DNA from: Chloroflexota bacterium
GTDB taxonomy: Bacteria; Chloroflexota; Dehalococcoidia; DSGV01
DNA length: 64,000 bases
Assembly: GCA_021787985.1 (NCBI GenBank)
Contig: JAJYLG010000004.1
Coordinates: 22,869-86,868, forward strand
Direction: 5' to 3'
This document shows positions 2,380-34,657 of the stretch, in pieces (position 1 is the stretch's first letter; every line of letters starts with the position of its first letter). The notes beneath the pieces were generated by a model. The model searched no databases. It worked only from the letters and a program-made list of their open reading frames with translations, and had not been told where the DNA came from. Position numbers and translations under genes: made by a program.

Positions 2380-2791
2380 GCCGCGTGTCTTTATCGACAG
2401 CAGCGTCCTGCTTGCGGCGTTCGCCGGCGACGCGCAGGCGCAGCGCGTCGTGCTGGCGGCGGCGCGCGGCCGCATCCGCGCGGTCGTCAGCGACTGGGTG
2501 GCCGAGGAGGTGACACGGGCGTTGGCCCGTCGCGCGCCGGCCATCGCGCCGACCGTCTCGCTCGTCCTCGACGCGCTCCAAGCGGACGAGGTCATCGTCC
2601 CGACGGACGAGGAGGCGGCGGACTACATCGGCGGCGAGCCGATCGACGGGCCGATGATCGCTGCCGCCGAGGAGGGCGACGCCCGCTATCTGGTCACGTG
2701 CGACCCGGCGCTGCTGGACCGGCGGCAGGCGATCGCGAAGCGCCACGTTCAGGCGCTCACCCCGGCCGAGGCCGCCGCCCGCTGGCGCTAG
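2372..2791 (+). CDS. PIN-domain ribonuclease toxin, VapC-like
   Basis: 139 aa. N-terminal VFIDSSVLLAAF with conserved acidic residues. Overlaps the upstream antitoxin by 8 nt. Confidence 0.7.
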   Translation: MAEPRVFIDSSVLLAAFAGDAQAQRVVLAAARGRIRAVVSDWVAEEVTRALARRAPAIAPTVSLVLDALQADEVIVPTDEEAADYIGGEPIDGPMIAAAEEGDARYLVTCDPALLDRRQAIAKRHVQALTPAEAAARWR

Positions 2792-2823
2792 CCAGCCGCC
2801 CCGGCACGCCTGCCGCCGTGTGG

Positions 2824-4517: not shown

Positions 4518-4531
4518 ACGCACCACCTTCG

Positions 4532-4948
4532 TCAGGTCTTGGGCGTCTCGGGAGGGCGAAACGAGAACGCGTGCTCGATCGTCACCGGTGACCTGAGCGT
4601 GTTGCTGATCGTGCAGCGCGTGCCGACCCGCTCCACCATCTCCATCTGGCGCTCGCTCAAGCCGCGGTGACGCACTTCCGCGGATACGCGGATCTCTCCA
4701 TAGCGTCGCGGGCTCGCGGTCGGCTCCGCTTCCAGGGACAGCGCCAGCGCTTCGATCGCCCCTTTGCCCAGGGCCTCGTGCTGCAGCAAGGTCCGCATCG
4801 TGCAGAGCGCGAGCGCCATGAGCAGCAGGTCTCCCGAGCGGGGCATCTCGGGGTCGCCCTCGCCACCGTCGGGGAGCTGCAACCGGAACCCGCCGGCATC
4901 GAAGCAGAACCCTTCCCCGTCTTTGTAGGACGCGACCAGCCTCGCCAC
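4532..4948 (-). CDS. OsmC/Ohr family peroxiredoxin-like protein
   Basis: LLLMALALCTMRTLLQHEALGKG and the C-terminal fold motif of OsmC. GTG start chosen at 4948; the ORF-track start at 5023 is probably too long. Confidence 0.65.
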   Translation of the reverse strand: MARLVASYKDGEGFCFDAGGFRLQLPDGGEGDPEMPRSGDLLLMALALCTMRTLLQHEALGKGAIEALALSLEAEPTASPRRYGEIRVSAEVRHRGLSERQMEMVERVGTRCTISNTLRSPVTIEHAFSFRPPETPKT

Positions 4949-5006
4949 CAGACCTGCCCCCTTTCGCCTGCGCCACGAATCCGACCGATTGCTTTGCGGC
5001 CCGCCG

Positions 5007-6704: not shown

Positions 6705-6854
6705 GATCCGCTCCTCCCCCGTTGTGCCGCTCCGACAGACCGCCAGAACGCACGCGCCAAGCCTGGCCACGCGGATCGCCGCGGGCGCTCCCCGACGCGT
6801 GACCGCGCCTCATACCGGCGCGACGGCGGCCCCCCCTGCCGGATGCCACCGAGA

Positions 6855-6870
6855 GTAACCGGACGGTTAC
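6855..6870. promoter_or_regulatory. Perfect palindrome GTAACCGgaCGGTTAC about 150 nt upstream of the substrate-binding protein gene; candidate operator
   Basis: 7-bp inverted arms with a 2-nt spacer in the 5' intergenic region of the minus-strand transporter gene. Confidence 0.3.
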
Positions 6871-6974
6871 CATCTGTCAACCGCTTGCGCTCGCTCGAAC
6901 ACCGCCGACTGGGCTCAGGGCTGCTTCGCCCGACCGGGCTCCTTGTGCTGACCAAGGAGCTTCGCGCCGCGCCT

Positions 6975-8198
6975 CTACGGTCGGCCACGCTCCCGTAGCA
7001 GCGCGACCACCTCGTCCCAGATGCGCTGGGCAACCGCGTACTTCGGCAGCAGCGGCAACGGTATCTCGCTCCCGTCGCGCCGCAACATCGTCACCCGGTT
7101 GGTGTCGCTGCCGAAGCCGCTGCCCGCCGCCGTCACGTCATTCACCACCAGCAGGTCCAGACCCTTGCGGACCATCTTCGACCGGGCCGCCTCCAGCACC
7201 TCGTGCGTCTCCGCCGCGAACCCCGCGATCAGGCATCCAGGACCCGCCGACGCCTTCGCCTCCGCCAGCACGTCCGGCGTCCGCGCCAGCTCCAGCGCCA
7301 GCGACTCGCGCTCACCGCGCTTGATCTTGCGCTGCTCGCTCGCCGCCGGCGCGAAGTCCGCCACCGCCGCCGCCATGACCAGCGCGTCCGCCTCGCTCAC
7401 CGCCGCGACGACCGCGTCGCGCATCTCCGCCGCGCGCTCGACGGCCACGTGCTCGATGCCGTACGCCGTCTCCGGCGGCGGCACCGTCGAGACGAGCACC
7501 ACCTGCGCCCCGCGGTCCCGAGCAGCCTCGGCCAGGGCGAACCCCATCTTGCCGGACGAGCGGTTGCCCACGTAGCGCACCGGGTCGATCGGCTCGCGTG
7601 TACCGCCGGCGGTGACGACCACCCGCCGGCCGGCCATGTCGCCCGAACGCCCGAGCAGCCAGCGCACGGCGCCGAGCAGCGCCGGCACCTCGACCATGCG
7701 CCCGGTGCCGCTGGCCCCGCTGGCGAGTCGCCCCTCGGCCGGGCCGACCACGTGCACCCCGCGCTCGCGCAGCCGCGCCAGGTTGGCCTGGGTCGCCGCG
7801 TTGGCGTGCATGTGCTCCTCCATCGCCGGGGCGATGAGGAGCGGCGCAGCCGTGGCGAGCGCCGTCAGGGTCACCATGTCGTTCGCCATGCCCGCCGCCA
7901 GGCGCGCGATCGCGTCGGCGCTGGCAGGCGCCACGACCATCACCTCGGCCCGTTGCGCCAGGCCGACGTGCTCGACCGCCAGCTCGCTGTGGACGTCGAA
8001 CGGGTCAAGCGCCACCGGCCGGCCGGAGAGCGCGCGGAACGTCAGCGGGGCGATGAACCGCGCGGCGGCGGGCGTCATCGCCACGTCCACCGTAGCGCCG
8101 AGCTGCGTCAGCTTGCTGACCAGGTCGGCCGCCTTGTAGGCCGCGATGCTGCCCGTGACGCCGACGACGACGCGCCTAGCGCTCAGCATGCGGGCCAC
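6975..8198 (-). CDS. coaBC: Bifunctional phosphopantothenoylcysteine decarboxylase / phosphopantothenate-cysteine ligase
   Basis: 407 aa. N-terminal flavoprotein VVVGVTGSIAAYKA and C-terminal DFP/CoaB domain VVTAGGTREPIDPVRYVGNRSSGKMG. Confidence 0.9.
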   Translation of the reverse strand: MARMLSARRVVVGVTGSIAAYKAADLVSKLTQLGATVDVAMTPAAARFIAPLTFRALSGRPVALDPFDVHSELAVEHVGLAQRAEVMVVAPASADAIARLAAGMANDMVTLTALATAAPLLIAPAMEEHMHANAATQANLARLRERGVHVVGPAEGRLASGASGTGRMVEVPALLGAVRWLLGRSGDMAGRRVVVTAGGTREPIDPVRYVGNRSSGKMGFALAEAARDRGAQVVLVSTVPPPETAYGIEHVAVERAAEMRDAVVAAVSEADALVMAAAVADFAPAASEQRKIKRGERESLALELARTPDVLAEAKASAGPGCLIAGFAAETHEVLEAARSKMVRKGLDLLVVNDVTAAGSGFGSDTNRVTMLRRDGSEIPLPLLPKYAVAQRIWDEVVALLRERGRP

Positions 8199-8952
8199 GG
8201 TTCAGGTCGTAGATGATGCGCAGCCCCGTCAGCGTCAGGTTCGGTTCCACCTGCTGGATGGCCGGTGTCTCGCGCGCAATGAGCGAGGCGTAGCCGCCGG
8301 TGGCCACCACGGTCGCGTTCCCGCCCAGCTCGCGCTGGAAGCGGTCCACGATCCCCTCCACCAGCCCCACGTAGCCGAACATGATGCCGCTCTGCATCGC
8401 ATGCACGGTGTTCTTGCCGATAGCGCACCGTGGCCGTTCGAGCTCGATGCGGTACAGCATGGCGGCATGCTCGAAGAGCGCGTTGGCCGCGATGCCGATC
8501 CCGGGCGCGATCGCGCCGCCCAGATAGTCGCCCTCGCGAGAGACGGCGTCGAACACCGTGGCCGTGCCGAAATCGACCACGATCACGGGCGGGCCGTACA
8601 GGCGGATGGCGGCGACGGCGTCGATGATCCGGTCCGGGCCGACGTCACGCGGGCTGTCGTAGAGGATGCGCACGCCGGTGCGCACGCCAGAGCCGACGAC
8701 GAGCGGCTGGATGCCGAAGTAGCGCCGCGCGAGCTCCTCGAACGTCTGAGTCAGCGGCGGCACCGTGCTGCCCAGGACGCAGTCGCTGATCTGCTCCGGG
8801 CTGACTCCGCCGTTGCGGAGCAGCGAGAGGATGATGATGGCGTACTCGTCAGTGAGCCGGTTGGCGTTGGCCGCGAGGCGGTAGCTGGCGACCAGCTCCT
8901 CGCTGCGGAACACCCCCAAGTGCACGCTGGTGTTGCCGATGTCGACCGCCAT
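8176..8952 (-). CDS. coaX: Type III pantothenate kinase
   Basis: Start MAVDIGNTSVHLG at 8952. Motifs VVDFGTATVFD and GKNTVHAMQSG. Its stop overlaps the coaBC start. Confidence 0.85.
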   Translation of the reverse strand: MAVDIGNTSVHLGVFRSEELVASYRLAANANRLTDEYAIIILSLLRNGGVSPEQISDCVLGSTVPPLTQTFEELARRYFGIQPLVVGSGVRTGVRILYDSPRDVGPDRIIDAVAAIRLYGPPVIVVDFGTATVFDAVSREGDYLGGAIAPGIGIAANALFEHAAMLYRIELERPRCAIGKNTVHAMQSGIMFGYVGLVEGIVDRFQRELGGNATVVATGGYASLIARETPAIQQVEPNLTLTGLRIIYDLNRGPHAER

Positions 8953-10336: not shown

Positions 10337-10927
10337 CAGCCCGCGCCGCCATCCGCGCCCGGTCACGTTCGCGCCTTTCCGGTCGGTGTGGCCATGCGGT
10401 CTCCCCGCGGAGTGGGGGGGCGGGACGCGCCCCTCACCTCCCTGGGGCCACGCTGAGCCCTCGCTCGGTGACACTTCAATGGCGGTGGTGGCACGTTCCG
10501 GTTAGGATCCCGCGAAGAGCGAGCAAGGGACTGGTGACAAGATCGTTACTTCGGTGACGTCCACGTCACCGGATCACGTCGCTCGTTCCCGAGCGGGGAG
10601 CGCGTGGCTCGGGGCGGGGCGACGGCGTGAGCGCGGTCCCGGCCGCGGTCGGTTTTCTTGTCGCGCTCAATACCCGGAAATTTCCCCCGGTAAGGCGACA
10701 GAAGAGGGTTGTCGGGCCACACGTGGCATGTGCTACGCTCGCCCACGTCCAGCGAACCCTTTCCCCCTGCGGACCGGCGGACGGCGCCGGCGCTCAACGG
10801 GACGGCAACCCGCGAAGGCTCGCACGATGCATCGCGCGCGAGCTGGGGGTCGTCGCGCCCTGGGCGCGCGCACGCTCGCCAGCCGCCCAACGCGGGTTTG
10901 GCTCGTACGGGCCTGGAGGCACGGGAC

Positions 10928-12313
10928 ATGCAAAGTTCGGCGCCCGATCGCGTCTGGCAGGCAATCCTGCACCATCTGCGAACGCTGGTCACCGGCCCGG
11001 TCTACCAGACCTGGTTCGATGGCACGGTGGGCATCGCCATCGAGGGCAACCTGCTCACCGTCAACACGCCCAACGACTTCGTCACCGAGTACCTGCGCTC
11101 GCGCCTCGCGGGCGTCGTCGGGCGCGCGGTCGCGGATGTGGCAGGCGCGGACGTGCGCGTCTCCTACCGCTCTGGGACGGTGATCTCCGAGCCGCCGCCG
11201 CCCCCCCTCACCCCACCGCCGGGAGCACCGTCGGCGGCTTCCGCGCCCCTTTTCTCTCACCCGGTGCGGGCGCCGAAGCCGATGCTGCGCCCCGAGTACA
11301 CTTTCGATCGCCTCGTCGTCGGGCGCTGCAACCAGGTCGCGCACTCCGCCGCCGTCGCCGTCGCCGCCGACCCCGGCCGGGTCTATAATCCGCTCTTCTT
11401 CTTCGGCCCCACCGGTGTGGGCAAGAGCCACCTGCTGACCGCGATCGGTCACGAAACCCTCGACCTCGGCCAGCACGTCGCCTTCGTCACCTGCGACCAG
11501 TTCATCAACGAGTTCGTCACCGCGCTGCGCGAGCGCCGCGCCGACGAGTTCCGCCAGCGCTATCGCGCCGCAGACGTCTTCCTGCTCGACGACGTGCACC
11601 AGCTCCAGGGCAAGGAGCAGACGATCGAGGAGTTCTTCAACCTGTTCAACGACCTCCACGCCGCCGGCACCCAGATCGTGCTCACCAGCGACCGCGCGCC
11701 GCGCAGCCTGGGGCTGATCGAGCCGCGCCTGCGCAGCCGCTTCGAGTGGGGGCTGCTCGCCGACGTGTCCGTCCCCGACCTCGAGACCCGCCAGGCGATT
11801 GTCCGGCGCAAGGCCGAAGAGCGGCAGATCGACCTCCCGGTGGAGGTGCTCGACTTCATCGCCCAGCGGTCGGCGGAAAGCGTGCGCGAGCTGGAAGGCA
11901 ACCTGAACCGTGTCATCATGTTCCTCAAGGTCCAGAACAAGCCCACCAGCGTGGCGCTCGCCGCCGAGGCGCTGCGTAGCATAGACGCGCGTCCTGCCGG
12001 GCGCCCGCCGGTTCCCGAGGCGATCGTCGAGGCGGTCTGCGCGTTCTACGGCGTCCGCGAGGCGGAGCTGACGGGCAAGGGCCGCACCGCCCGCGTCGTC
12101 CGCGCCCGCCACGTGGCGATGTTCCTGATGCACCACGACGCCGGCCGCGCGCTCACCGAGATCGGACGCGCCTTGGGCGGCCGCGACCACTCCACGGTCC
12201 TGCACGCGTCCACGAAGATCACCGCGCAGCTCGAGCGCGATGCCGACCTCTGCCGCGAGGTGGAGGAGCTGCGTGCCGTGCTGCAGCGGCGGGAGCGCCG
12301 CGCGGCGGGCTAG
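10928..12313 (+). CDS. dnaA: Chromosomal replication initiator protein DnaA
   Basis: Start MQSSAPDRVWQAILHHLRTL. Walker A GPTGVGKSHLL. AAA+ sensor motifs. C-terminal DNA-binding domain HVAMFLMH...GGRDHSTVLHA. Confidence 0.9.
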   Translation: MQSSAPDRVWQAILHHLRTLVTGPVYQTWFDGTVGIAIEGNLLTVNTPNDFVTEYLRSRLAGVVGRAVADVAGADVRVSYRSGTVISEPPPPPLTPPPGAPSAASAPLFSHPVRAPKPMLRPEYTFDRLVVGRCNQVAHSAAVAVAADPGRVYNPLFFFGPTGVGKSHLLTAIGHETLDLGQHVAFVTCDQFINEFVTALRERRADEFRQRYRAADVFLLDDVHQLQGKEQTIEEFFNLFNDLHAAGTQIVLTSDRAPRSLGLIEPRLRSRFEWGLLADVSVPDLETRQAIVRRKAEERQIDLPVEVLDFIAQRSAESVRELEGNLNRVIMFLKVQNKPTSVALAAEALRSIDARPAGRPPVPEAIVEAVCAFYGVREAELTGKGRTARVVRARHVAMFLMHHDAGRALTEIGRALGGRDHSTVLHASTKITAQLERDADLCREVEELRAVLQRRERRAAG

Positions 12314-18000: not shown

Positions 18001-18095
18001 ACACGGCGTCAAGACCGGCCGAACGCGCGCCCGGACGTGTCTAACCCTCCGCGAGCGTGGCACTCTAGAAACACAGGGAGCAGGAGGTGCGGGTG

Positions 18096-20012
18096 ATGGC
18101 CCAGCGATACGCCCGACTTACCCGGCCGCTTGTCCGCGAGGGCGGAGCGCTGCGCACGGCAACCTGGGATGAGGCGCTCGACCGGGCAGCGGCCGGATTC
18201 CGGGACGCCGTCGCGCGAAGCGGCCCGCGGAGCTTCGGCCTGTTTAGCTGCTCGAAGGCCACCAACGAGATCAACTTCATCGCCCAGAAGTTCGCGCGTG
18301 CCGTCATCGGCAGCAACAACATCGATAGCTGCAATCGCACCTGACACGCGCCGAGCGTCGTCGGTCTGGCGACGGTATTCGGCGCGGGCGGCGGCACCAG
18401 CTCCTACCGTGAGGTCGAGGAGACCGACCTGATCGTGCTCTGGGGCTCGAACGCTCGCGAGACCCACCCGATCTTCTTCCACCACGTGCTCCGCGGATTG
18501 CGCAACGGGGCCCGCTTGTACGCGGTGGACCCGCGCCGCACCACCTCCGCACAGTGGGCGCACGCCTGGCTGGGGCTCCAGGTCGGCTCCGACATCGCCC
18601 TGGCCAACGCCATCGGCCGCGAGATCATCGCCGCGGGCCTCGCCAACGAGACGTTCATCGCCCGCGCTACCGCCGGTTTCGACGAGTACCGCCGCTGCGT
18701 CGACCGCTACACCCTCGACTACGCCCAGCGCGAGACGGGCGTGCCGGCGGAGACGATCCGCGAGCTGGCGCACGCCTACGCCCGCGCCGACCGGGCGATG
18801 ATCTGCTGGACGCTGGGCGTGACGGAGCACCACAACGCGGTGGACACCGTGCTGGCGATCATCGACCTGGCGTTGCTGACCGGCCACGTCGGCCGCTACG
18901 GCTCCGGACTCAACCCGTTGCGGGGACAGAACAACGTCCAGGGCGGCGGTGATATGGGCGCGCTGCCCGATCGGCTGCCGGGCTTCCAGCACGTCGAGGA
19001 CGACGCCGCGCGCGCGAAGTTCGAGCGCGCCTGGGGCGTCCGCATCCCGCCGAAGCGGGGCTGGCACCTCACCGGCATGTTCGAGGCGATGGAGCGGGGC
19101 GATCTCACCGCGCTCTACGTCATCGGCGAGAACCCCGCTCAGTCCGAAGCCGACGCCGGCCGGGCCGTGCGGCTCCTGGGCGGTCTCGGGCACCTGGTCG
19201 TGCAGGACATCTTCCTGACGCCCACCGCCGAGCTGGCGCACGTCGTGCTCCCGGCGGCCGCGAGCTGGTGCGAATGCGAGGGCACCGTCACCAGCAGCGA
19301 GCGTCGCGTGCAGCGCGTGCGCAAGGCGCTGGAGCCGCCGGGCGAGGCCCGCGACGACATCACGATCATCCGCGACCTGGCCCGCCGCTTCGGCCACAAC
19401 TGGGGCTCGCCCAGCGCCGAGGACGTCTGGAACGAGCTGCGCAGCCTGAGCCCGATCCACGCCGGCATGAGCTACCGCCGCCTCGAGGCACTGGGCGGGC
19501 TCCAGTGGCCCTGCCACGACGAGACCCACCCTGGTGAGCAGTTCCTCCACGGCCGCCTCTGGGAGGAGCCGCTGCGCGGCCCGCGGACGCCCTTCCACGC
19601 TGTCCTGCACGAGCCGCCCGTGGACCCGGTCGACGACGAGTTCCCGATCCGCCTCACCACCGGCAGGCAGCTCGATTCGTTCAACACCGGCGTCCAGAGC
19701 GGGCTCTACCGCTCGCCGTTGCGCCACGGAGAGACGCTCCAGATCTCGCCGGACGACGGCCGCCGCTACGGCGCCCTCGACGGCGAGCGCGTGCGCGTGC
19801 GCTCACGCCGCGGCGCGGTGGAAGTGTCGGTCCACTACGAAGGCACCCTGCGCCCCGGCCTCGCGTTCATGACGCTTCACTTCCCGGACGAGGTGGCGAC
19901 GAACCTGCTGACGATCGACGCCGCCGACCCGAGGTCCGGCACGGCCGAGTTCAAGGCCACTGCCATCCGCATCGAGAAGATCGCGACGTCGACGGACGGC
20001 GCGGAGGGCTGA
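18096..20012 (+). CDS. fdhA: Formate dehydrogenase catalytic (molybdopterin bis-MGD) subunit, selenocysteine-containing. In-frame TGA at 18342-18344 is read as Sec. The N-terminal Fe-S domains are encoded separately (see 21823..22779)
   Basis: ATG at 18096 with AGGAGG 8 nt upstream. ...FIAQKFARAVIGSNNIDSCNRT-TGA-HAPSVVGL aligns with the E. coli FdhF ...CARV-U-HGPSVAGL. Downstream motif GQNNVQGGGDMGALP contains the conserved Arg. ORFs 18087..18344 and 18435..20012 are the same frame joined through the UGA. Confidence 0.8.
18345..18388 (+). promoter_or_regulatory. SECIS-like recoding hairpin immediately 3' of the UGA codon
   Basis: Outer stem cgcgccga (18347-18354) pairs with tcggcgcg (18379-18386). 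Inner stem cgtcg pairs with cgacg. Apical loop ucGGUCugg contains the GGUC element expected of bacterial SECIS loops. Confidence 0.5.
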
Positions 20013-21826
20013 TGGACATCCACCTGTCGGCAACCGAGGCCAGCCCGATCGAGCGCGCCGCCGTGGACGCGGCACTCGGACCTCGGGACACCCGCCCACC
20101 GCCGCGCGACCGGCTCCTGCCCGCGCTGTGGGCCGTTCAATCACGCGTCGGCCACATCGGCGAGGGCGCGCTCAGCTACATCTGCGAGCGGCTCGACGTC
20201 CCGCCGGCCGAGGCGTACTCCGTCGCCAGCTTCTACGCCCTCTTCTCGCTCGACCCGTCTGCCGGGCAGCCGCTGGTCGCGCACGTCTGCGACGACATCG
20301 CCTGCCGCGCGGCCGGTGCCGAGCAGATCTGCGCCCGGCTCGAGACGGCGCTCGGCCCGCCCGGCACTCCGACCAGCGACGGCCGGGCCACCTGGCGGCG
20401 CGCGTCCTGCCTCGGGCAGTGTGACCGGGCGCCGGCCGCGCTGGTCATGGCCGCCGGTTCGCAGCCTATCGAGCGTGCCCTCGCGCCGGTGGACCCGCCA
20501 GCGCTGCAGACGGCGTTGCGCGACGGCGCGCTTTCCCCCGCGACGGACGCGGAGACAGCCACGCTTCCACGGATCGGCGGCGCCAGCCTGCGATTGCTGC
20601 GCCGCGTCGGCCGGATCGACCCGACCAGCCTGGACGACTATCGCGCCCACGGCGGCTACGAGGCGCTACGACGCGCCGTGCGGCTCGGACCCGACGGCGT
20701 CATCCGCGAGGTCGTCGACGCCAAGCTCGTCGGTCGCGGCGGCGCGGCCTTCCCCACCGGGCGCAAGTGGGAAGCGGTCGCGCACGCGGCCGCGCGACCG
20801 CACTACCTGGTCTGCAACGCCGACGAGTCCGAGCCTGGCATGTTCAAGGACCGCGTGCTCATGGAGCACGACCCGTTCGCCATCATCGAGGCGATGACGA
20901 TCGCCGGCTACGCCACCGGCTGCGAGCAAGGCTACGTCTACGTCCGTGGCGAGTACCCGCTGGCGTTCTCCCGGCTGCGGAACGCGGTCGCGCAGGCGCA
21001 GGCGAAAGGACTGCTGGGCGACGACGTGCTGGGACGGGGTTTCCGCTTCGACATCGAGCCGCGGCGCGGCGCGGGCGCCTACGTCTGCGGCGAGGAGACC
21101 GCGCTGTTCAGCTCGATCGAGGGCTACCGCGGCGAGCCGCGCAACCGGCCGCCGTTCCCCACCCAGTCCGGGCTCTTCGGAAGACCAACGGCGGTCAACA
21201 ACGTCGAGACGCTGGTCAACGTGCTCGAGATCCTGCGCGAGGGTGGGCCGGCGTTCGCGGCCATCGGCACTCGCGACTCCACCGGGACGAAGCTGTTCTG
21301 TGTCTCCGGGCGGGTCGACCGCCCCGGCGTGTACGAGGTGCCGTTCGGCACCACGCTGCGCGCGCTGCTCGACCTGGCGGGCGGGCTGCCCGCGGGGCGG
21401 ACGTTGCGGGCCGTGCTGCTCGGCGGCGCTGCGGGTAGCGTGATCCCGCCGGAGCAGGTCGACATGCCGCTCACGTTCGAGGCCGCCCGGGCGCGCGGCG
21501 TCGCGCTCGGCTCCGGGGCCGTCATCGTCTTCGACGACACGGTCGACCTACGGCGCATCTTGCTGCGCGTCGCGGCCTTCTTCCGCGATGAGTCGTGCGG
21601 CCAGTGCGTGCCGTGCCGTATCGGCACCGTCCGCCAGGAGGAGCTGCTCGAGCGACTGGTCTCCGGTCGCCCGCACAGCTCGGTGCGGGACGAGCTGGCC
21701 CTGCTGGCGGATATCGGCCGGGCGATGCGCGACGCTTCGATCTGCGGTCTCGGCCAGACGGCGAGCACCGCCGTCGAGTCGGCGGTGCGCGAGCTGAAGC
21801 TCTTTGCGGACGGAGGTGACACGTGA
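20012..21826 (+). CDS. fdsGB: NAD-dependent formate dehydrogenase gamma-beta fusion (NuoE-like 2Fe-2S thioredoxin-fold domain fused to NuoF-like FMN/NADH/4Fe-4S domain)
   Basis: N-terminal NuoE-like segment LPALWAVQSRVGHIGEGALSYICERL...HVCDDIACR. NuoF-like GRGGAAFPTGRKWE, YLVCNADESEPG and ESCGQCVPCRIG. Start overlaps the fdhA stop (TGATG). Confidence 0.85.
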   Translation: MDIHLSATEASPIERAAVDAALGPRDTRPPPRDRLLPALWAVQSRVGHIGEGALSYICERLDVPPAEAYSVASFYALFSLDPSAGQPLVAHVCDDIACRAAGAEQICARLETALGPPGTPTSDGRATWRRASCLGQCDRAPAALVMAAGSQPIERALAPVDPPALQTALRDGALSPATDAETATLPRIGGASLRLLRRVGRIDPTSLDDYRAHGGYEALRRAVRLGPDGVIREVVDAKLVGRGGAAFPTGRKWEAVAHAAARPHYLVCNADESEPGMFKDRVLMEHDPFAIIEAMTIAGYATGCEQGYVYVRGEYPLAFSRLRNAVAQAQAKGLLGDDVLGRGFRFDIEPRRGAGAYVCGEETALFSSIEGYRGEPRNRPPFPTQSGLFGRPTAVNNVETLVNVLEILREGGPAFAAIGTRDSTGTKLFCVSGRVDRPGVYEVPFGTTLRALLDLAGGLPAGRTLRAVLLGGAAGSVIPPEQVDMPLTFEAARARGVALGSGAVIVFDDTVDLRRILLRVAAFFRDESCGQCVPCRIGTVRQEELLERLVSGRPHSSVRDELALLADIGRAMRDASICGLGQTASTAVESAVRELKLFADGGDT

Positions 21827-22779
21827 GCGTCGGACCTGCTGCAGCACCCACCGGGCTCGTTGAGCTGACCATCGACGGACAGACGGTGCAGGTGCCGGAG
21901 GGGAGCGCGTTGCTGCAAGCATGCCGCGCGCGCGGGGTAGCCACGCCGACGGTCTGCTACGCGGAGAACCTGACGCCTGTCAACGTGTGCCGCGTGTGCG
22001 TGGTCGAGGTCGAAGGTTCACGAGCGCTCGTCCCCGCCTGCTCGCGCCCCGTGGAGCGTGGAATGGTCGTTCACACGGACTCGGAGCGCGTCCGCCATAG
22101 CCGTCGCATGGTGCTCGAGCTGCTCGCCTCGGCCACCGACCTGTCGCTCGCGCCGGAGGTGGAGGAGCACCTGCGACGCTACGGCGGCCGACCGGAGCGC
22201 TTTGGCCCGGCTGCGCCGCCGACACCCGGCGCGGACCATCGGCACACGCAGGCCGGCCATCACCGTCCCACGGACGGCTCGACCGCGGCGACGGTCACGC
22301 AGCCGACCCTCATCGACAACGAGCTCTACGTGCGCGATTACTCACGCTGCGTCCTCTGCTACAAGTGCGTCGAGGCGTGCGGCGTCGACGCCCAGAACAC
22401 CTTCGCCATCGCCGTAGCCGGGCGCGGCTTCGAGGCGCGCATCTCGACCGAGTTCGGCCTGCCGTTGCCGGACTCCGCCTGCGTCTACTGTGGCAACTGC
22501 ATCGGCGTGTGCCCCACCGGCGCGCTGATGTTCCGCAGCGAACACGAGATGCGCCGAAACGGAACCTGGGACGAGACCCGGCAGCAACGCACCGACACGA
22601 TCTGCCCGTACTGCGGCGTCGGCTGCACGCTCACCCTGCACGTCCAGGACGGCCGCATCGTCAAGGTCAGCTCGCCGCCGGAGCACGACGTCGCCGGCGG
22701 CCACCTGTGCATCAAGGGCCGCTTCGGCTGGGAGTTCGTGCAGGTGCTCGAGGACCCGGCGCCCGCCTCCGACCGTTGA
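21823..22779 (+). CDS. Formate dehydrogenase Fe-S subunit, equivalent to the N-terminal one-third of FdsA/FdhF (2Fe-2S ferredoxin, 4Fe-4S clusters and the Mo-domain-associated 4Fe-4S)
   Basis: GTG start overlaps the fdsGB stop (GTGA). Motifs CRVCVVEVEG, CVLCYKCVEACGV, CVYCGNCIGVCPTGA, and TICPYCGVGCTL...GHLCIKGRFGWEF, which matches the FdhF N-terminus up to the domain boundary. Confidence 0.8.
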   Translation: MSVGPAAAPTGLVELTIDGQTVQVPEGSALLQACRARGVATPTVCYAENLTPVNVCRVCVVEVEGSRALVPACSRPVERGMVVHTDSERVRHSRRMVLELLASATDLSLAPEVEEHLRRYGGRPERFGPAAPPTPGADHRHTQAGHHRPTDGSTAATVTQPTLIDNELYVRDYSRCVLCYKCVEACGVDAQNTFAIAVAGRGFEARISTEFGLPLPDSACVYCGNCIGVCPTGALMFRSEHEMRRNGTWDETRQQRTDTICPYCGVGCTLTLHVQDGRIVKVSSPPEHDVAGGHLCIKGRFGWEFVQVLEDPAPASDR

Positions 22780-22893: not shown

Positions 22894-23394
22894 GTGAACT
22901 GGGTCGACGTGGTCGTCGTCGCCACGTTGCTCTGGTTTACGCTCGACGGCTGGCGCACCGGGATCATCCGCCAGGTGACCACCATTCTGGCGGTCATCCT
23001 GGGGGCGGTTCTCGCCGGCAGGCTCTACGGCCGCCTGGCGGATGACGTGCACATCTTCGTCGGCAGCCGCGTTGCCTCGGACGTGATCGCGTTCCTCGCG
23101 ATCTTCTTCGCCATCATCGGCTTCGGCCAGCTTGCCGCCTGGTACCTGCGCCGTCTGGCCTCGGTGCTGCTCCTCGGCCCCGCGGACAACATCCTGGGCG
23201 CGTTGTTCGGCTTCGCCAAGGGCTTTCTGCTCGTCGAGGCGCTACTGCTGCTGTTCATCACCTTTCAGGTGGGCGGCGTGACGCGCACCATCAACCACGC
23301 GCTGCTCGCGCCGCTCTTCGTGCAGGGCTTCCCCATCCTGCTGCACGTGCTACCGCGCGAGTTCCACCGTGCCGCGGACATGTTCGGCCGTTGA
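22894..23394 (+). CDS. CvpA family membrane protein
   Basis: 166 aa, 4 TM. N-terminal MNWVDVVVVATLLWFTLDGWRTG is typical of colicin V production protein family members. Confidence 0.65.
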   Translation: MNWVDVVVVATLLWFTLDGWRTGIIRQVTTILAVILGAVLAGRLYGRLADDVHIFVGSRVASDVIAFLAIFFAIIGFGQLAAWYLRRLASVLLLGPADNILGALFGFAKGFLLVEALLLLFITFQVGGVTRTINHALLAPLFVQGFPILLHVLPREFHRAADMFGR

Positions 23395-23458
23395 GCCGCA
23401 CGATTCGTTGCCGGCCCGCACACCGCTCTGCTACCGTGAAGCCAGCGAGGCAGGGCTC

Positions 23459-23986
23459 ATGGGGCCATCACCGGTACTCGTCCTGAACCAGAACTACGAG
23501 CCGCTGAACGTGTGTGGCCCGCACCGCGCCTTCGTCCTCCTGGACCGCGGGAAGGCCGAGATCCTCGAGGAGTCTGACCTCGTCTTGCGCAGTCCCTCCT
23601 ACGAGTTCCGGCTCCCCAGCATCATCCGTATGGTCTACCTCATCCGCCGCCCGCGGCCGCAGATGCGGCTGACGCGACGCGACATCTTCCAGCGCGACCG
23701 CTACACCTGCCAGTACTGCGGCCGTCAGGGTCGCGACCTCACCATCGATCACGTGGTCCCGCGGCACCGCGGCGGGAGGCACGCCTGGGAGAACCTGGTT
23801 AGTGCCTGCCGACCGTGCAACCACCGCAAGGCCGGGCGCACACCGAGCGAGGCGCACATGCGCCTGCTGCGCGAACCCCACCGGCCAACGGCCCCCAGCT
23901 ACTATCTTTTCTACGACTACTGCAATCATCGCGAGGGATGGCGTAAGTTCATCCCAGGCTGGGAGGAGATGATCGGGGCGATGTAG
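23459..23986 (+). CDS. HNH endonuclease
   Basis: Start MGPSPVLVLNQNYEP. HNH motif region CQYCGRQGRDLTIDHVVPRHRGGRHAWENLVSACRPCNHRK. Confidence 0.75.
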   Translation: MGPSPVLVLNQNYEPLNVCGPHRAFVLLDRGKAEILEESDLVLRSPSYEFRLPSIIRMVYLIRRPRPQMRLTRRDIFQRDRYTCQYCGRQGRDLTIDHVVPRHRGGRHAWENLVSACRPCNHRKAGRTPSEAHMRLLREPHRPTAPSYYLFYDYCNHREGWRKFIPGWEEMIGAM

Positions 23987-24030
23987 CGCCCCGCGAAACG
24001 CGACAACCGGCCAGAATCGGTGAGGAGGGT

Positions 24031-24855
24031 TTGATGTACGAGGCCGTGCTGGTGCCCCTGGATGGCTCGGAGCTGGCGGAACGCGCCCTGATCTCGGCCG
24101 CGAAGATCGCGCAGGCGGACGGCGCCGCCATCAAGCTGTTCAGCGTCGTGGAAGACACGGAGCACGTCGCGGAGCGGCGCGCCTATCTCGAGGCGAAGGC
24201 CAAGGAGCTCGGCCCTCGGGCGTCGGCCATGGAGCCGGTGGTGGCCAGGGAACCGGCGGGGGCGATCGCGGGCGCGATCACGGACCGTCCCAACGTCCTG
24301 CTTTGCATGTCCACCCACGGCCGCACCCCCGTGAGCCGCGTCTTCCTGGGCAGCGTCGCCGGCGAGGTCGTCCGCACCATCCCCGGCCCTGTGCTCGCCG
24401 TCGGCCCGCACTTCGACTCCGCGCGCTGCACGACGCTCACCGAGATGGTCGTCCCGGTCGATGGCTCCCGCTTTTCGGAGGCCGTGCTGCCGCTGGCCGT
24501 CTCGTGGGCCCAGGCGCTCAGGCTCAGCATGATCCTCGTCAGCGTTCTGCCGCCGTCGAACACCCCCTACATCGGCCAGACGGACGTATTCGAGTCGGCC
24601 TACGTCTCGAACCTGAGCTCCGACCTGCGGCGGCAGGGTGTCAACGTTCAGTGGGAGGTCCTGCACGGCGACCGTCCAGCCGAGGCGATCCTCGACTTCA
24701 TCAGCCGCCGGACATCCGGCTGCCTGCTCGTCATGAGTACGCACGGCCGCAGCGGCCTGGAGCGCGTGGTGATGGGCAGTGTCGCCGGCGCGCTGGTGGC
24801 CCGCGTGCCCTGCCCGATGCTGGTGATCCGGCCGCGCGACCTGACCGAAGGCTGA
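24031..24855 (+). CDS. Universal stress protein, tandem UspA domains
   Basis: Two USP domains: VLVPLDGS...LCMSTHGRT...GSVAGEV and MVVPVDGS...VMSTHGRSGLERVVMGSVAG. Confidence 0.8.
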   Translation: MMYEAVLVPLDGSELAERALISAAKIAQADGAAIKLFSVVEDTEHVAERRAYLEAKAKELGPRASAMEPVVAREPAGAIAGAITDRPNVLLCMSTHGRTPVSRVFLGSVAGEVVRTIPGPVLAVGPHFDSARCTTLTEMVVPVDGSRFSEAVLPLAVSWAQALRLSMILVSVLPPSNTPYIGQTDVFESAYVSNLSSDLRRQGVNVQWEVLHGDRPAEAILDFISRRTSGCLLVMSTHGRSGLERVVMGSVAGALVARVPCPMLVIRPRDLTEG

Positions 24856-24996
24856 GCGGCGCGGGCGCTGTCGAGCGCAACCGGGGGGGCATCGCGGGAG
24901 TAACCCGCCGGGTCGCCCATCCGCGTTCATCGGGGTTCCCGGGCCGGTGCGGAAGGCCGTGCGCGCAACGCCGGGCTACGTTACGGTGGTGGTGAC

Positions 24997-30290: not shown

Positions 30291-30318
30291 GGCGGCGCCG
30301 TTGCCCGGGGCGCCTCAC

Positions 30319-31431
30319 GTGAGCTCGGCCACACCGCGTCAGACCGCCCTCAACCCGCGGCACCGCGCGGCCGGCGCGCGGATGGTGCCGTTCGCCGGCT
30401 GGGAGATGCCGCTGCAGTACCGCGGCATCGTGGAGGAGCACCTCGCGGTCCGCCGCCGGGTCGGCGTGTTCGACGTCTCGCACATGGCGCGTTTCTTCCT
30501 CGCCGGGGCGGACGCGGGCGCGGTCATCCGCCGGACGGTCACGTACGACGTGCTGGCAATGGAGCCGGAGACCGGCCACTACAGCGTCGCGTGTGATGAC
30601 GCGGGCGGCATCCTGGATGACCCCTACGTCTACCGGCTCGGCCCGCAGCGCTGGATGGTGGTGGGCAACGCCGCGCGTCGCGAGGTCGACCTGGAGGCGC
30701 TGCGGGCGGCAGTTCGCTCCGGAGACGACGTGGAGCTGGACGATCGGACGGAAGCGACGGCAATGCTGGCGGTCCAAGGGCCGCAAGCGGCCTCCCTCCT
30801 CGGCGCCCTGCTGGCCCCCGAGATCGTCGGGCGCGTGGAGCCACACCACACCACCGAGGTGGCGCTGGTGGGTTACAAGGCGCTGGTCAGCCGCACCGGC
30901 TACACGGGCGAGGACGGCTTCGAGCTGGTGCTGGCGGCGGCGGTAGCGGCCGAGGTCTGGGACCGCCTGCTGTCCGGCGGCGCTGAGCCCTGCGGACTGG
31001 GTGCGCGTGACACGCTGCGGCTCGAGGCGGCGCTGGCGCTGTATGGCAACGACATCGACGTGACGACCGACCCGTTTGAGGCGGGCCTTGGTTGGGTGGT
31101 CTCGCTCGAAGATGCAGGGGACTTTCGCGGCCGGGCCGCGCTCGTCGGCAGGAAGGCGGCCGGCCGAACGCGAGCGCTCGCCTGCATCCGCGCCGCCGAA
31201 CGCGGGCCGGTGTTCCGCCACGGCTGCGCCGTGCTGGCGGGCGGCGCGCGGGTCGGCGGGCTGACCAGCGGCGGTTACTCGCCTGTGCTGGAGACGTCGA
31301 TCGGGATGGGCTACCTGCCGGTCGAGCAGGCGAAGTCGGGGACGCGCGTGGAGGTGGAGGTGCGCGGACGACGCGAGCGGGCGGAGGTGGTGCGGCGGCC
31401 GTTTTACCGGCGGGCGGCCGGGTCATCCTGA
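30319..31431 (+). CDS. gcvT: Glycine cleavage system T protein (aminomethyltransferase)
   Basis: GARMVPFAGWEMPLQY and VGVFDVSHM. GTG at 30319 preferred over the TTG at 30301. Confidence 0.85.
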   Translation: MSSATPRQTALNPRHRAAGARMVPFAGWEMPLQYRGIVEEHLAVRRRVGVFDVSHMARFFLAGADAGAVIRRTVTYDVLAMEPETGHYSVACDDAGGILDDPYVYRLGPQRWMVVGNAARREVDLEALRAAVRSGDDVELDDRTEATAMLAVQGPQAASLLGALLAPEIVGRVEPHHTTEVALVGYKALVSRTGYTGEDGFELVLAAAVAAEVWDRLLSGGAEPCGLGARDTLRLEAALALYGNDIDVTTDPFEAGLGWVVSLEDAGDFRGRAALVGRKAAGRTRALACIRAAERGPVFRHGCAVLAGGARVGGLTSGGYSPVLETSIGMGYLPVEQAKSGTRVEVEVRGRRERAEVVRRPFYRRAAGSS

Positions 31432-31480
31432 GGCGAGCGGGCCGTATACTCGGAGCACAACGTATCTGAGGGGGCGAGCC

Positions 31481-31861
31481 GTGCAATTCCCCGCCGAGCT
31501 GCGATACTCCCGCGAGCACGAGTGGGTCCGAGTGGAAGACGGAGCGGCGGTGGTCGGGATCACCGACTTCGCCCAGGACCAGCTCGGCGACGTGGTGTTC
31601 GTCAGCCTGCCGGCCGTCGGGAGCAAGGTGGCCGCGCTCGAGAAGATGGGCGAGATCGAGTCGGTGAAATCGGTCTCGGAGCTCTACTCGCCGGTGTCGG
31701 GGACCGTGGTCGAGATCAACCAGGCCGCGGTTGACAGCCCCGAAACGATCAACCGTGACGCGTACGGCGAGGGCTGGCTGCTGCGCGTCGCGATGGATGG
31801 CGGCCTGCCGGATGGCCTGCTCTCCGCCGACGAGTATCGCGCCGTGGTGGGCGCCGAGTAG
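31481..31861 (+). CDS. gcvH: Glycine cleavage system H protein
   Basis: 126 aa. Lipoyl-lysine motif EKMGEIESVKSVSELYSPVSG. Confidence 0.9.
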   Translation: MQFPAELRYSREHEWVRVEDGAAVVGITDFAQDQLGDVVFVSLPAVGSKVAALEKMGEIESVKSVSELYSPVSGTVVEINQAAVDSPETINRDAYGEGWLLRVAMDGGLPDGLLSADEYRAVVGAE

Positions 31862-31880
31862 CCTCGGACTGGAGTTGACC

Positions 31881-33188
31881 GTGCGCAACCCCTACGTGCC
31901 GCACGTCGCGGACGAGCGGCGGGCGATGTGCGACGTGATCGGCGTCGCGTCTGCTGACGATCTGTTCGCCGATCTGCCGGCCCATCTGCGCGACCCACGG
32001 ATCGAGCTCCCGCCGCCGATGGCCGAGGCCGAGCTGCTGCGCCACTACCGCGCGCTCGCGGCGCGCACGGCCGATGCGCTCGCCGTGCCGTGCTTCCTTG
32101 GCGGACCGCTGCAGCGCCACGCCGTGCCGGCGGTGACGGCGTACGTTCTCGGCCGCGGCGAGTTCTCGACCGCGTACACCCCGTATCAGCCGGAGATCGC
32201 GCAGGGCACGCTCCAGGCGGCGTTCGAGTTCCAGTCCGCCGTCGCCGAGCTGACCGGGATGGACGTGGCCAACGCCGGCATGTATGACGGCCCGTCGGCG
32301 CTGGCCGAGGCCTGTCTGATGGCCGCGGCCGTCACCGGGCGTCGTCGCGTCGTGCTCGATGAGGGCGTCGACCCCGTCGCGGCCGACGTGGTGCGCACGT
32401 ACGCTTCCGGACACCAGCTCCAGGTCGAGACGGCCCGCGCGGCCGACGCTGACCTGGCGGGCGCCGCTGCGCTGGCGGTGCAGTACCCGGACGTGCTGGG
32501 CCAGGTCCGCCCGCTGGCGCCGCTCGCCGCACGGGCGCACGCCGCCGGCGCGCTGGTGTGCGCCAGCGCCGACCCGGTGGCGCTGGCGCTGCTGCAGCCT
32601 CCCGGCGAGGCCGGCGCCGACATCGTGGTCGGCGAGGGTGGGCCACTGGCGGCGCCGCCGACCTTCGGCGGGCCGAACCTGGGGCTGTTCGCCTGTCGCA
32701 AGGAGCTGGTCCGCCAGATGCCGGGCCGCATCGTCGGCGCCACCGTCGACGCGCGAGGCCGGCGCGGCTTCGTGCTGACGTTGCAGACGCGCGAGCAGCA
32801 CATCCGCCGCGAGCGGGCGACCTCGAACATCTGCACGGCCCAGCAGCTTCTGGCGACGGGGTTCGCGGTCACGCTGGCGCTGCTCGGCCCGGCAGGGCTG
32901 CGCGAGCTGGCGGAGACCTGCTACCAGCGAGCGCACGCGCTCGCCGCCCGCATCGCCACGCTGCCGGGATGGTCGGTGGCCAGCGAGCCGCCGTTCTTCC
33001 ATGAGTTCGCGGTCGCCGGCCCGTTGCCCCCGCGGGCAGTTAACGCGAGGCTGTGGGAGCACGGGATTGTCGGTGGGCGGCCGCTGGTCTGGCGCGGGAC
33101 GGAAGTGCTCGTCCTGTCCGTCACCGAGCTCAATCCGCCCGATCAGCTCGACGCGCTGGTCGCGGCGCTGACGGAGCCGCGGTCGTGA
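31881..33188 (+). CDS. gcvPA: Glycine dehydrogenase (decarboxylating) subunit 1
   Basis: GTG at 31881 with GGAG upstream. N-terminal NPYVPH...RRAMCDVIG. The ORF-track start at 31731 lies inside gcvH. Confidence 0.85.
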   Translation: MRNPYVPHVADERRAMCDVIGVASADDLFADLPAHLRDPRIELPPPMAEAELLRHYRALAARTADALAVPCFLGGPLQRHAVPAVTAYVLGRGEFSTAYTPYQPEIAQGTLQAAFEFQSAVAELTGMDVANAGMYDGPSALAEACLMAAAVTGRRRVVLDEGVDPVAADVVRTYASGHQLQVETARAADADLAGAAALAVQYPDVLGQVRPLAPLAARAHAAGALVCASADPVALALLQPPGEAGADIVVGEGGPLAAPPTFGGPNLGLFACRKELVRQMPGRIVGATVDARGRRGFVLTLQTREQHIRRERATSNICTAQQLLATGFAVTLALLGPAGLRELAETCYQRAHALAARIATLPGWSVASEPPFFHEFAVAGPLPPRAVNARLWEHGIVGGRPLVWRGTEVLVLSVTELNPPDQLDALVAALTEPRS

Positions 33189-34657
33189 ACCGGCGTGACG
33201 ACCGACTGACGTTCGAGCGCTCCGTACCCGGACGGCGTGGGCTGGGTGTGCCGGCGCCCGGCGTGCCAGAGCAGGAGCCGCTGCCGGGCGAGCTGCGGCG
33301 AGCCGCACCGCCCGGTCTGCCGGAGCTGAGCCAAGCGGAGGTGGTGCGCTACTACGTCGGTCTCGGACGGCTGAACTACAGCATCGAGACGGGCATGTAT
33401 CCGCTCGGCTCGTGCACGATGAAGTACAACCCGAAGGCGAACGACGAGGTGGCGGGGCTGTCGGGCTTCGCCGGCGCCCATCCGCTGCAGCCGGACGAGC
33501 TCAGCCAGGGCGTGCTGGAGGCGCTCTGGGAGCTGCAAGAGGCGCTCAAGGCGCTCACCGGCATGGCGGAGGCGACGCTCTGCCCGGCGGCCGGCGCGCA
33601 GGGAGAGCTCACCGGCATGCTGATGGTGCGGGCGTGGCACCGCGGGCGCGGCGAGGACGAGCGGCGGCGCAAGGTGCTGGTGCCGGACTCCGCGCACGGC
33701 ACGAACCCGGCCACGGCGGCGATGTGCGGCTATCAGGTGGTGGCCGTCCCCACGGACCCGGCCGGCAACATGGACATGGACGGGCTGCGCGCGGCCCTGG
33801 GCGACGACGTCGCCGGCCTGATGCTGACGCTGCCGAACACCCTGGGGCTATGGGAGCAGCACATCCTCGAGATCGCCGACGCGGTCCACGGGGCTGGCGC
33901 GCTGCTCTATGGCGACGGGGCGAACTTCAACGCCATCGCCGGACATGTCCGCCCGGGCGACCTGGGCTTCGATGCGATGCACGTCAACGTGCATAAGACG
34001 TTCAGCACGCCGCACGGCGGTGGCGGCCCGGGCGCTGGCCCCGTCTGCTGCGCGGCGGCGCTGGCGCCGTTCCTGCCCGATCCGCACATCGAACGCCGCG
34101 ACGGTCGCCTGGTGCGCGTGCGGCCCGAGCGGAGCATCGGCCGGGTCGGTCCCGGGCCGGGCAGCGTTGGCGTGCTGCTGCGCGCGGCGGCGTACCTGCG
34201 GACGCTGGGCCTCGATGGCATCCGCGAGATGAGCGCCGCCGCCGTCCTCAACGCGAACTACCTGCGTGTGCGGCTCGCTGCGACGTACGATCAGCCGTAC
34301 GACCGCCCCTGCATGCACGAGGCCGTCTTTTCGGCGCGCGCACTGAGGAGACAGGGTGTCCGCGCGCTCGACGTGGCCAAGCGCCTGATCGACTATGGGT
34401 TCCACCCGCCGACGATGTACTTCCCGCTGATCGTGGAAGAGGCGCTGATGATCGAGCCGACCGAGTCGGAGACGAAGGAGTCGCTCGATGCCTTCGCCAA
34501 GGCGATGCATGCCATCGCCGACGAAGCGGCGACCGAGCCGGAGCTGCTGCACGACGCGCCGCACGACGCCCCGGTGGGGCGACTTGATGAGGCGCTGGCC
34601 GCGCGGCGGCCGGTCCTGCGCTGGACGCCGGAGCAGTCGGTGGTGCCAGCGGGCTGA
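33185..34657 (+). CDS. gcvPB: Glycine dehydrogenase (decarboxylating) subunit 2
   Basis: GTG start overlaps the gcvPA stop (GTGA). Motifs GSCTMKYNPK and HVNVHKTFSTPHGGGGPG (PLP lysine). Confidence 0.85.
   Translation: MNRRDDRLTFERSVPGRRGLGVPAPGVPEQEPLPGELRRAAPPGLPELSQAEVVRYYVGLGRLNYSIETGMYPLGSCTMKYNPKANDEVAGLSGFAGAHPLQPDELSQGVLEALWELQEALKALTGMAEATLCPAAGAQGELTGMLMVRAWHRGRGEDERRRKVLVPDSAHGTNPATAAMCGYQVVAVPTDPAGNMDMDGLRAALGDDVAGLMLTLPNTLGLWEQHILEIADAVHGAGALLYGDGANFNAIAGHVRPGDLGFDAMHVNVHKTFSTPHGGGGPGAGPVCCAAALAPFLPDPHIERRDGRLVRVRPERSIGRVGPGPGSVGVLLRAAAYLRTLGLDGIREMSAAAVLNANYLRVRLAATYDQPYDRPCMHEAVFSARALRRQGVRALDVAKRLIDYGFHPPTMYFPLIVEEALMIEPTESETKESLDAFAKAMHAIADEAATEPELLHDAPHDAPVGRLDEALAARRPVLRWTPEQSVVPAG

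Follow-up and report, generated by a model that had tools for sequence, protein, structure and literature searches.

A putative selenocysteine formate dehydrogenase with a divided α subunit in a Chloroflexota genome

Why would the α subunit of a formate dehydrogenase be encoded by two genes, one at each end of the same operon? The question is raised by three consecutive genes at positions 18096..22779 of a 64,000-nucleotide stretch of contig JAJYLG010000004.1 (positions 22,869 to 86,868; assembly GCA_021787985.1) from a Chloroflexota bacterium. This whole stretch is referred to as the window. The genes very probably encode a soluble selenocysteine (Sec) formate dehydrogenase of three polypeptides that is linked to nicotinamide adenine dinucleotide, NAD(H). 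The sequences would place it in the complex-I-related, NAD(H)-linked class of the FdsABG / MeFDH1 type, in which two to four polypeptides are usual. It belongs, as an ordinary member, to a widespread variant of NAD-dependent formate dehydrogenase that is uncharacterised. In this variant the α subunit is split, cluster FS0 is located on a separate chain, cluster A4 is lost, and the γ and β subunits are fused. The window holds the selenocysteine form.

Division of the α subunit

The three genes are consecutive open reading frames (ORFs) on the plus strand with high third-position G+C (0.88-0.95), in a window of about 70% G+C. The first (18096..20012) encodes the catalytic subunit αC, which would carry a molybdenum or tungsten bis-pyranopterin guanine dinucleotide (Mo/W-bisPGD) and is called the Mo subunit below. 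It has 638 codons when an in-frame TGA is read as selenocysteine. A Shine-Dalgarno-like GGAGG, found by reading the sequence, lies at 18083..18087 on the same strand, 8 nt ahead of ATG 18096. The second gene (20012..21826) encodes the diaphorase subunit, a NuoE-NuoF fusion of 604 residues. The third (21823..22779) starts with GTG and encodes αN, an Fe-S subunit of 318 residues. Both junctions are stop/start overlaps, TGATG at 20010-20014 between the Mo and NuoEF genes and GTGA at 21823-21826 between the NuoEF and Fe-S genes, and a GGAGG-like site precedes each of the two. The initial annotation of this locus described the overlaps correctly but counted three junctions where there are only two. 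The domains it assigned to the three ORFs are those found with Pfam profiles.

The α subunit is divided just past the [4Fe-4S] domain that holds FS0. The Mo subunit matches Molybdopterin (PF00384, E = 1e-66) and Molydop_binding (PF01568, E = 4e-23), and Pfam finds no Fe4S4 domain in it. The Fe-S subunit contains Fer2_4 (residues 13-87), Fer4 and Fer4_Nqo3 (172-235) and Molybdop_Fe4S4 (255-306), also by Pfam. The FS0 domain is located at the C-terminus of this third product, not at the N-terminus of the Mo polypeptide. Positions 50-672 of the NCBIfam model TIGR01591 (Fdh-alpha) align with Mo-subunit residues 4-626 (636.2 bits) and positions 1-49 with Fe-S-subunit residues 259-307 (56.1 bits), and the break falls at model position 49/50. 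The Mo subunit matches residues 306-932 of Rhodobacter capsulatus FdsA (6tg9_A), and the best Protein Data Bank (PDB) match of the Fe-S subunit is FdsA residues 24-302. Escherichia coli FdhF residues 61-690 align with Mo-subunit residues 7-631. These alignments agree with the earlier proposals that the third gene supplies the missing N-terminal Fe-S module, that the Mo subunit starts at about FdhF residue 60, and that the order is rotated to αC, γ-β, αN.

Two other accounts were raised with those proposals and are ruled out. The product of the third gene is not a generic NuoG-like or ferredoxin paralog, as its best solved match is the FdsA N-terminus. Nor is an Fe-S domain hidden upstream of the Mo gene and lost to a frameshift, because an in-frame TAG at 18066-18068, 10 codons 5' of the ATG, closes the upstream frame, and the preceding gene is a complete class-III aminotransferase by Pfam.

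The Mo subunit contains the active-site residues of a formate dehydrogenase. Sec83 and His84 are found in CNRT-U-HAPS and Arg276 in LRGQNNVQG. They are collinear, at a constant offset of 57, with Sec140, His141 and Arg333 of E. coli FdhF (1aa6) in its published numbering. Formate is the likely substrate and NAD+ the likely acceptor, and either Mo or W may occupy the pterin site. An enzyme acting on another substrate, such as an NAD(P)H assimilatory nitrate reductase, or a formate-inactive NuoEFG paralog from complex I would also produce some of these matches. The NasC and NasA models match the Mo subunit (386 and 358 bits), the NuoG and HoxU models match the Fe-S subunit, and the names given by the Prokaryotic Genome Annotation Pipeline (PGAP) are only generic ('2Fe-2S iron-sulfur cluster-binding protein', 'molybdopterin-dependent oxidoreductase'). 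However, the Fdh-alpha model scores far higher, with 636 bits on the Mo subunit and a further 56 bits on the Fe-S subunit, and the Sec-His and Arg triad is characteristic of formate dehydrogenases. In addition, the commonest neighbour of the operon, adjoining it in about 33 of the related loci described below, is the sulfurtransferase gene fdhD, and no further nuo genes are located nearby in the window. We consider an enzyme of this other kind very unlikely.

The Fe-S subunit retains all clusters of its FdsA counterpart except one. An alignment of 26 members of the Fe-S family contains 16 invariant cysteines in four groups. Cys 45/56/59/73 form the [2Fe-2S] site, Cys 176/179/182/186 and 220/223/226/230 two ferredoxin-type [4Fe-4S] sites, and Cys 261/264/268/296 the FS0 site, which is followed by Lys298 in a CIKG motif. 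The subunit has three [4Fe-4S] sites, compared to four in the single-chain α of the FdsA type. The A4 ligand motif, His-x3-Cys-x2-Cys-x5-Cys, is absent from it, PF10588 is not matched, and SDHPLDCLTCAANGDC in the A4 region of FdsA is replaced by SATDLSLAPEVEEHL. In R. capsulatus FdsA the A4 ligands are His117, Cys121, Cys124 and Cys130, and this cluster, at the dimer interface, has been put forward as a link between the protomers (Radon et al. 2020, PMC7171172). The direct chain in that enzyme runs through bis-MGD (bis-molybdopterin guanine dinucleotide), A1, A2, A3, A5, B6 and flavin mononucleotide (FMN), with A4 and G7 off the electron path (Radon et al. 2020, PMC7171172). The Fe-S subunit keeps ligands for A1, A2, A3 and A5, and the fusion keeps those for the FdsB- and FdsG-type clusters. 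Every on-path cluster is therefore retained.

The stretch in the place of A4 (22123..22320, residues ~101-166) is conserved among the Sec-type relatives, with invariant Gly145 and His147. The Fe-S subunit of Cys-type actinomycete relatives also lacks A4, and its linker is 24 residues shorter.

The NuoE-NuoF fusion contains 2Fe-2S_thioredx (residues 30-145), Complex1_51K (235-405), SLBB and NADH_4Fe-4S (516-594) domains by Pfam, and the NCBIfam NuoE and NuoF models both match it. Cys 93/98/133/137 and 529/532/535/578 are present. The proposed joining of γ and β in one product is therefore borne out, and it has a precedent. Methylobacterium extorquens FDH1 (7e5z, 7vw6), a soluble NAD-linked enzyme as proposed here, contains a NuoE-NuoF-type fusion of 572 residues, Fdh1B (7e5z_B).

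PDB relatives of the fusion include FdsB, HoxF, HydB and MeFdh1B, with HydB, NfnB and Hyl-type subunits among the closest, and the Fe-S subunit resembles the N-termini of HydA and HoxU. The operon might on these grounds encode the formate dehydrogenase arm of a bifurcating or hydrogenase-coupled complex (HylABC-Fdh / HydABC) that uses ferredoxin and NAD. Bifurcating HydB-type subunits, however, carry extra clusters. No Fer4 domain is found in the 604-residue fusion, which lacks additional C-terminal ferredoxin-type clusters and ends 10 residues past NADH_4Fe-4S. Neither the operon nor the flanking DNA contains a gene for a hydrogenase or a ferredoxin, in the window or in the relatives examined. 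Such a complex is most improbable here.

Comparison with known systems indicates which features are shared. FdsABG(D) of R. capsulatus and Cupriavidus necator (6tg9, 6tga) is built from the same Mo-bisPGD, NuoG-like, NuoF-like and NuoE-like modules, and A1, A2, A3, A5, B6 and the off-path G7 all have ligands in the window proteins. FdsA is one chain of 958 residues with A4 and a Cys metal ligand, whereas the window α subunit is encoded by the first and last genes, with the break between FdsA 302 and 306, and has no A4 and a Sec ligand. The γ and β subunits are separate in FdsABG, and the window operon has no fdsD. In M. extorquens, Fdh1A has its modules fused in one chain of about 990 residues, with a Cys ligand and tungsten. 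FdhF shares the Sec-His and Arg active site, but it carries its own FS0 (residues 1-60) and feeds the hydrogenase-3 complex, not an NAD-reducing module. The N-terminal modules of HoxU and NuoG have the same [2Fe-2S] and ferredoxin-type [4Fe-4S] core and pair with a NuoF/HoxF-type flavoprotein; compared to these, the window Fe-S subunit adds a C-terminal Molybdop_Fe4S4 domain for FS0 and lacks the His-ligated cluster. In formylmethanofuran dehydrogenase, the formate-dehydrogenase-like Mo/W-pterin fold is made of two polypeptides, FwdB and FwdD. That split removes the C-terminal pterin-binding domain, whereas the window split removes the N-terminal FS0 and NuoG-like module.

The two α pieces probably assemble like fused FdsA. 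Formate would be oxidised at a Mo- or W-bis-pyranopterin ligated by Sec83, aided by His84 and Arg276 of the first product. Electrons would cross the subunit interface to FS0 on the third product, with Lys298 the likely bridge. In FdhF, Lys44 bridges the cluster and the pterin. The path would continue through both ferredoxin-type [4Fe-4S] clusters of the Fe-S subunit and its [2Fe-2S] cluster, and finally through the [4Fe-4S] cluster and FMN of the fusion, where NAD+ would be reduced. In such an enzyme the cluster closest to the pterin can be carried by another chain, and the dimer-interface cluster A4 is dispensable.

The in-frame TGA codon and its hairpin

The initial annotation located the frame of the Mo gene correctly and did not mention that a TGA at 18342..18344 (plus strand) interrupts it. 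Comparative evidence indicates that this TGA is a selenocysteine codon and not a defect. It is located in the motif DSCNRT-U-HAPS, at the position of FdhF Sec140. A hairpin resembling a selenocysteine insertion sequence (SECIS) follows at 18348..18385 on the same strand, identified from its fold, by comparison with E. coli fdhF and from an alignment of 65 sequences. With the U of UGA taken as nt 1, a lower helix is formed between nt 7-14 and 37-44 and an upper helix between nt 15-21 and 27-33, leaving GGUCU at nt 22-26 as the apical loop. The predicted fold has a free energy of -29.4 kcal/mol. In E. coli fdhF (MG1655 sequence) GGUCUG is found at nt 22-27, and the placing in the window hairpin is the same.

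Both elements are conserved. Among loci with the Mo-gene motif, TGA occupies the Sec position in 70 of 70, a count that includes the window's own contig and two duplicates, and the hairpin core GTCG(T/C)CGGTCTGGCG(A/G)C is present in all of them. Across the 65-sequence alignment, 93.6% of cells are paired in the upper helix. Compensatory CG to GC changes occur at pair 18-30, and UG, CG and UA alternate at pair 20-28. The covariation score was reached by none of 500 shuffles, and controls slid out of register paired in 32-57% of cases compared to 86.6% in the true register. Third codon positions within nt 15-30 are nearly invariant; flanking third positions vary freely.

Genes for selenocysteine synthesis are linked to the operon in some relatives. 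In L043, from Candidatus Limnocylindrales, a tRNA-SeC and a SelD-type gene (AIRS/AIRS_C) lie directly upstream of fdhD and the operon. The cluster, at 1031..8499 of that locus, contains tRNA-SeC, the SelD-type gene, fdhD, the Sec-type Mo gene, the NuoEF and FeS genes and a gene for a MobA-like guanylyltransferase. SelD-like genes are also located near the operon in L033, L039 and L042.

The TGA could instead be a nonsense mutation in a Mo pseudogene, with the operon decaying or the product truncated. Gene callers divide the Mo gene at its UGA into ORFs of 82 and 525 residues (about 82 and about 530-545 in protein databases), and no Sec machinery is visible in the window. However, the TGA is found exactly at the catalytic Sec/Cys position in every motif locus, and the frame is intact on both sides with a third-position G+C of 0.95. 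The hairpin is kept at synonymous sites and shows compensatory changes, tRNA-Sec and selD accompany the operon in relatives, and the NCBI pipeline calls a full 650-residue Mo product across the TGA in L004. Taken with these observations, a pseudogene is very improbable.

Several observations weigh against a functional Sec-type formate dehydrogenase. The free energy of the hairpin is ordinary for its base composition (z = -1.36), and the predicted window fold pairs U17, a bulged base in the E. coli element. Because the free energy alone is unremarkable, the case for a SECIS element is carried by the comparative data. Rfam at gathering thresholds gives no RNA family match in the window, and the SECIS call is our own comparison. 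No selA, selB, selC, selD, fdhD or mobA gene is found within the 64 kb window, where ARAGORN finds no tRNA and a Pfam sweep of about 45 ORFs finds no sel, fdhD, mobA or moa genes. Selenocysteine decoding and cofactor maturation therefore rest on genes outside the window, and the host presumably has the Sec machinery. Each α piece alone scores under the TIGR01591 equivalog cut-off (636.2 compared to 666.25 bits for the Mo subunit), and only their summed score, about 692 bits, exceeds it. An AlphaFold2 model of the Fe-S subunit from a 26-row alignment had a mean predicted local distance difference test score (pLDDT) of 50.3, too poor to use. Finally, no purified member of the split family was found in the literature or the PDB.

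One relative differs at the Sec position. P0276, a protein of 645 residues from an ENA contig, is 73% identical and reads DSCNRT-R-HAPS, with Arg in the place of Sec or Cys. A TGA-to-CGA change, a sequencing error and an inactive copy are all possible.

Distribution and origin of the split layout

The split layout is widespread. When one genome per species was scanned, relatives of the Fe-S subunit turned up in at least 590 species genomes. The best 80 relatives all come from metagenome-assembled genomes (MAGs) of Acidobacteriota, Chloroflexota, Actinomycetota, Methylomirabilota, Rokubacteria and Gemmatimonadota, and further of Planctomycetota, Thermoanaerobaculia, Nitrospinota and Polyangiaceae. 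The 81 distinct related loci comprise 69 with the order Mo, NuoEF, FeS on one strand, 10 that are cut by a contig end, and two (L079 and L083) that have 5 kb of upstream DNA but no Mo gene. Of the 71 loci with sufficient DNA upstream, 69 thus have this order, and they come from about ten phyla.

The best 120 homologs of the Fe-S subunit, from MAGs of several phyla, have the same architecture and 69-77% identity; 118 are 306-360 residues long and the other two 353 and 392. Among the best 120 homologs of the Mo subunit, about 100 are fragments of 531-565 residues cut at the UGA. Most of the listed, UGA-truncated homologs share 76-80% identity with the Mo subunit, and loci of other phyla share up to 78%.

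A Cys-type branch is found in cultured actinomycetes. Its full-length Mo homologs (634-652 residues, 65-67% identical) read DSCNRTCHAPS, with Cys codons (TGC/TGT) at the Sec position. They are carried by Streptomyces samsunensis, malaysiensis and violaceusniger, Saccharopolyspora, Kutzneria, Thermopolyspora flexuosa and Nonomuraea. The actinomycete operon contains the Mo, NuoEF, FeS and FdhD genes, which abut or overlap. In all three actinomycete loci with Cys versions (Streptomyces, Saccharopolyspora and Thermopolyspora) fdhD adjoins the operon, directly downstream in Streptomyces and Thermopolyspora. A search for accessory genes, suggested by the initial annotation, is answered by these loci and by the roughly 33 mentioned above but not by the window itself. 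A MobA-like gene adjoins the operon in about 10 loci. For the Fe-S protein of Streptomyces alone, the cluster at 90% identity comprises 2212 members.

Gene spacing is more variable than gene order. Start/stop overlap is tight in the window, as the initial annotation has it, and in the actinomycete loci, but other loci have apparent spacers with medians of about 59 and 90 nt, which are upper estimates taken from tblastn alignment ends. Between the Mo and NuoEF genes, 0.7-2.2 kb of extra DNA is found in eight loci and about 4.9 kb in L072. The inserts in L033 and L040, which hold a methyltransferase-like ORF on the opposite strand and a solute-binding/transglycosylase-like ORF, were judged not to be parts of the system.

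The initial annotation had treated the fission and rearrangement as an event of this genome, and this does not hold. It is true that the layout is unlike that of every solved or reviewed NAD-dependent formate dehydrogenase, and the tight overlaps in the window could suggest a compact, recently reorganised operon. However, the break point and order are common to the 69 loci, from Acidobacteriota to Planctomycetota and others, and the order recurs in the Cys-type actinomycete operons. In addition, members of the split family are 62-78% identical to one another, compared to 37-42% for their nearest fused relatives in a representative library. A recent fission and rearrangement of a fused fdsA confined to this lineage is therefore extremely unlikely. 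The comparisons indicate instead that fission and rotation were already present in the ancestor of a large family that has a Sec and a Cys branch. This family is old and widely distributed, and it probably arose once.

In the representative library the family forms one 50% cluster and many fragments, which limits length statistics. The next relatives there are fused chains of 900-976 residues and N-terminal fragments of fused Sec-type enzymes. Two of these fragments, P0228 and P0240 (378 and 441 residues), end in ...NNID(H/N)CARL just before the UGA and are N-terminal halves of a fused Sec-type α subunit. P0228 also lacks the His-cluster motif.

The DnaA protein of the window organism has no relative above 48% identity, and its nearest relatives are MAGs of Chloroflexota/Dehalococcoidia. 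This suggests an organism of a poorly sampled lineage. MMPL and GT87 genes in the window had hinted at an actinobacterial host, to which these DnaA matches lend no support, and the placing of the organism stays tentative. The contrast with the 76-80% identity of the Mo subunit points to spread of the operon family by horizontal transfer, to very strong constraint, or to both.

How did the order arise? The change amounts to a cyclic rotation, from (γ-β, αN, αC) to (αC, γ-β, αN). An ancestral operon of α and β-γ genes may have been duplicated in tandem and then have lost its outer parts, which would account at once for the fission and for the rotated order. Such an origin appears to be the simplest explanation.

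Alternatively, the split and the gene order could be functional rather than historical, which we consider unlikely. With the Sec gene first, the UGA falls at codon 83, and translational coupling would gate the downstream subunits on Sec insertion. Failed read-through would then leave a harmless peptide of 82 residues. With a fused α subunit it would leave a cluster-loaded fragment of about 385 residues that is able to occupy the diaphorase. The split might also allow the cofactor-loaded catalytic piece to be matured by FdhD, or replaced, apart from the Fe-S/flavin module. These functional readings are weakened by the Cys-type operons, which share the order, and by most Sec-type loci, which show spacers and not overlaps.

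Annotation record and surroundings of the operon

Annotation has recorded the split layout, but biochemistry and structural biology have not. Genomes submitted by the Joint Genome Institute (JGI) carry the names 'NAD-dependent formate dehydrogenase catalytic subunit / flavoprotein subunit / iron-sulfur protein'. No description of a split α subunit was found in the literature searched in full text. There is no structure of the split form in the PDB, and the solved relatives (RcFdsA, 9wxb, MeFDH1, ForC/YjgC, HDCR FdhF and FdhF) all have a fused α subunit. A 2026 review counts MeFDH1, CnFdsDABG and RcFdsABGD, all of Cys type, as the only characterised cytoplasmic NAD+-dependent enzymes. One metagenome paper places a Chloroflexi fdhA beside nuoG, hoxF and hoxE, without comment. 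The initial annotation missed the Sec codon and its hairpin, the loss of A4 and the precedent for the γ-β fusion. SCO6559-6562 of Streptomyces coelicolor was considered as a further example of the operon, but no support for this was found and it was dropped.

Because automated gene calls break at the UGA, metagenomic surveys probably under-count both formate dehydrogenases and selenoproteins. This systematic mis-calling is a practical point. The family seems very common in soil and sediment bacteria, mostly uncultured, together with many Streptomyces. Its specialist interest lies in FS0 on a separate chain and in an obligate-Sec clade, and research on CO2 reduction could find interest in a formate/CO2 catalyst that contains Sec, is linked to NAD and has a detachable catalytic subunit. 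The window itself adds one more member to the family; it brings no new principle and overturns no expectation.

Directly 3' of the operon, 22894..23986 (plus strand) contains a CvpA-family gene (colicin V production) and a gene for an HNH endonuclease. The start of the CvpA ORF includes a terminator-like hairpin at 22905..22929. The DnaA gene (10709..12313, plus strand; a 461-residue version is found in databases) is located about 6 kb 5' of the operon, and the minimum of the cumulative GC skew falls near 24-26 kb of the window. The replication origin may therefore be close.

Further downstream, two long ORFs overlap on opposite strands. The one at 24031..24855 (plus strand) contains two Usp domains, agrees with the public gene call and is the only one of the pair with a family match; the 334-residue ORF at 23926..24930 (minus strand) is probably an artefact of high G+C. 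A glycine-cleavage set at 30301..34657 (plus strand), with gcvT, a likely gcvH at 31481..31861 and a two-part P-protein, has no evident link to the operon. A PIN-domain gene at 2372..2791 (plus strand) follows a small overlapping ORF at 1948..2379, and the two are a possible toxin-antitoxin pair.

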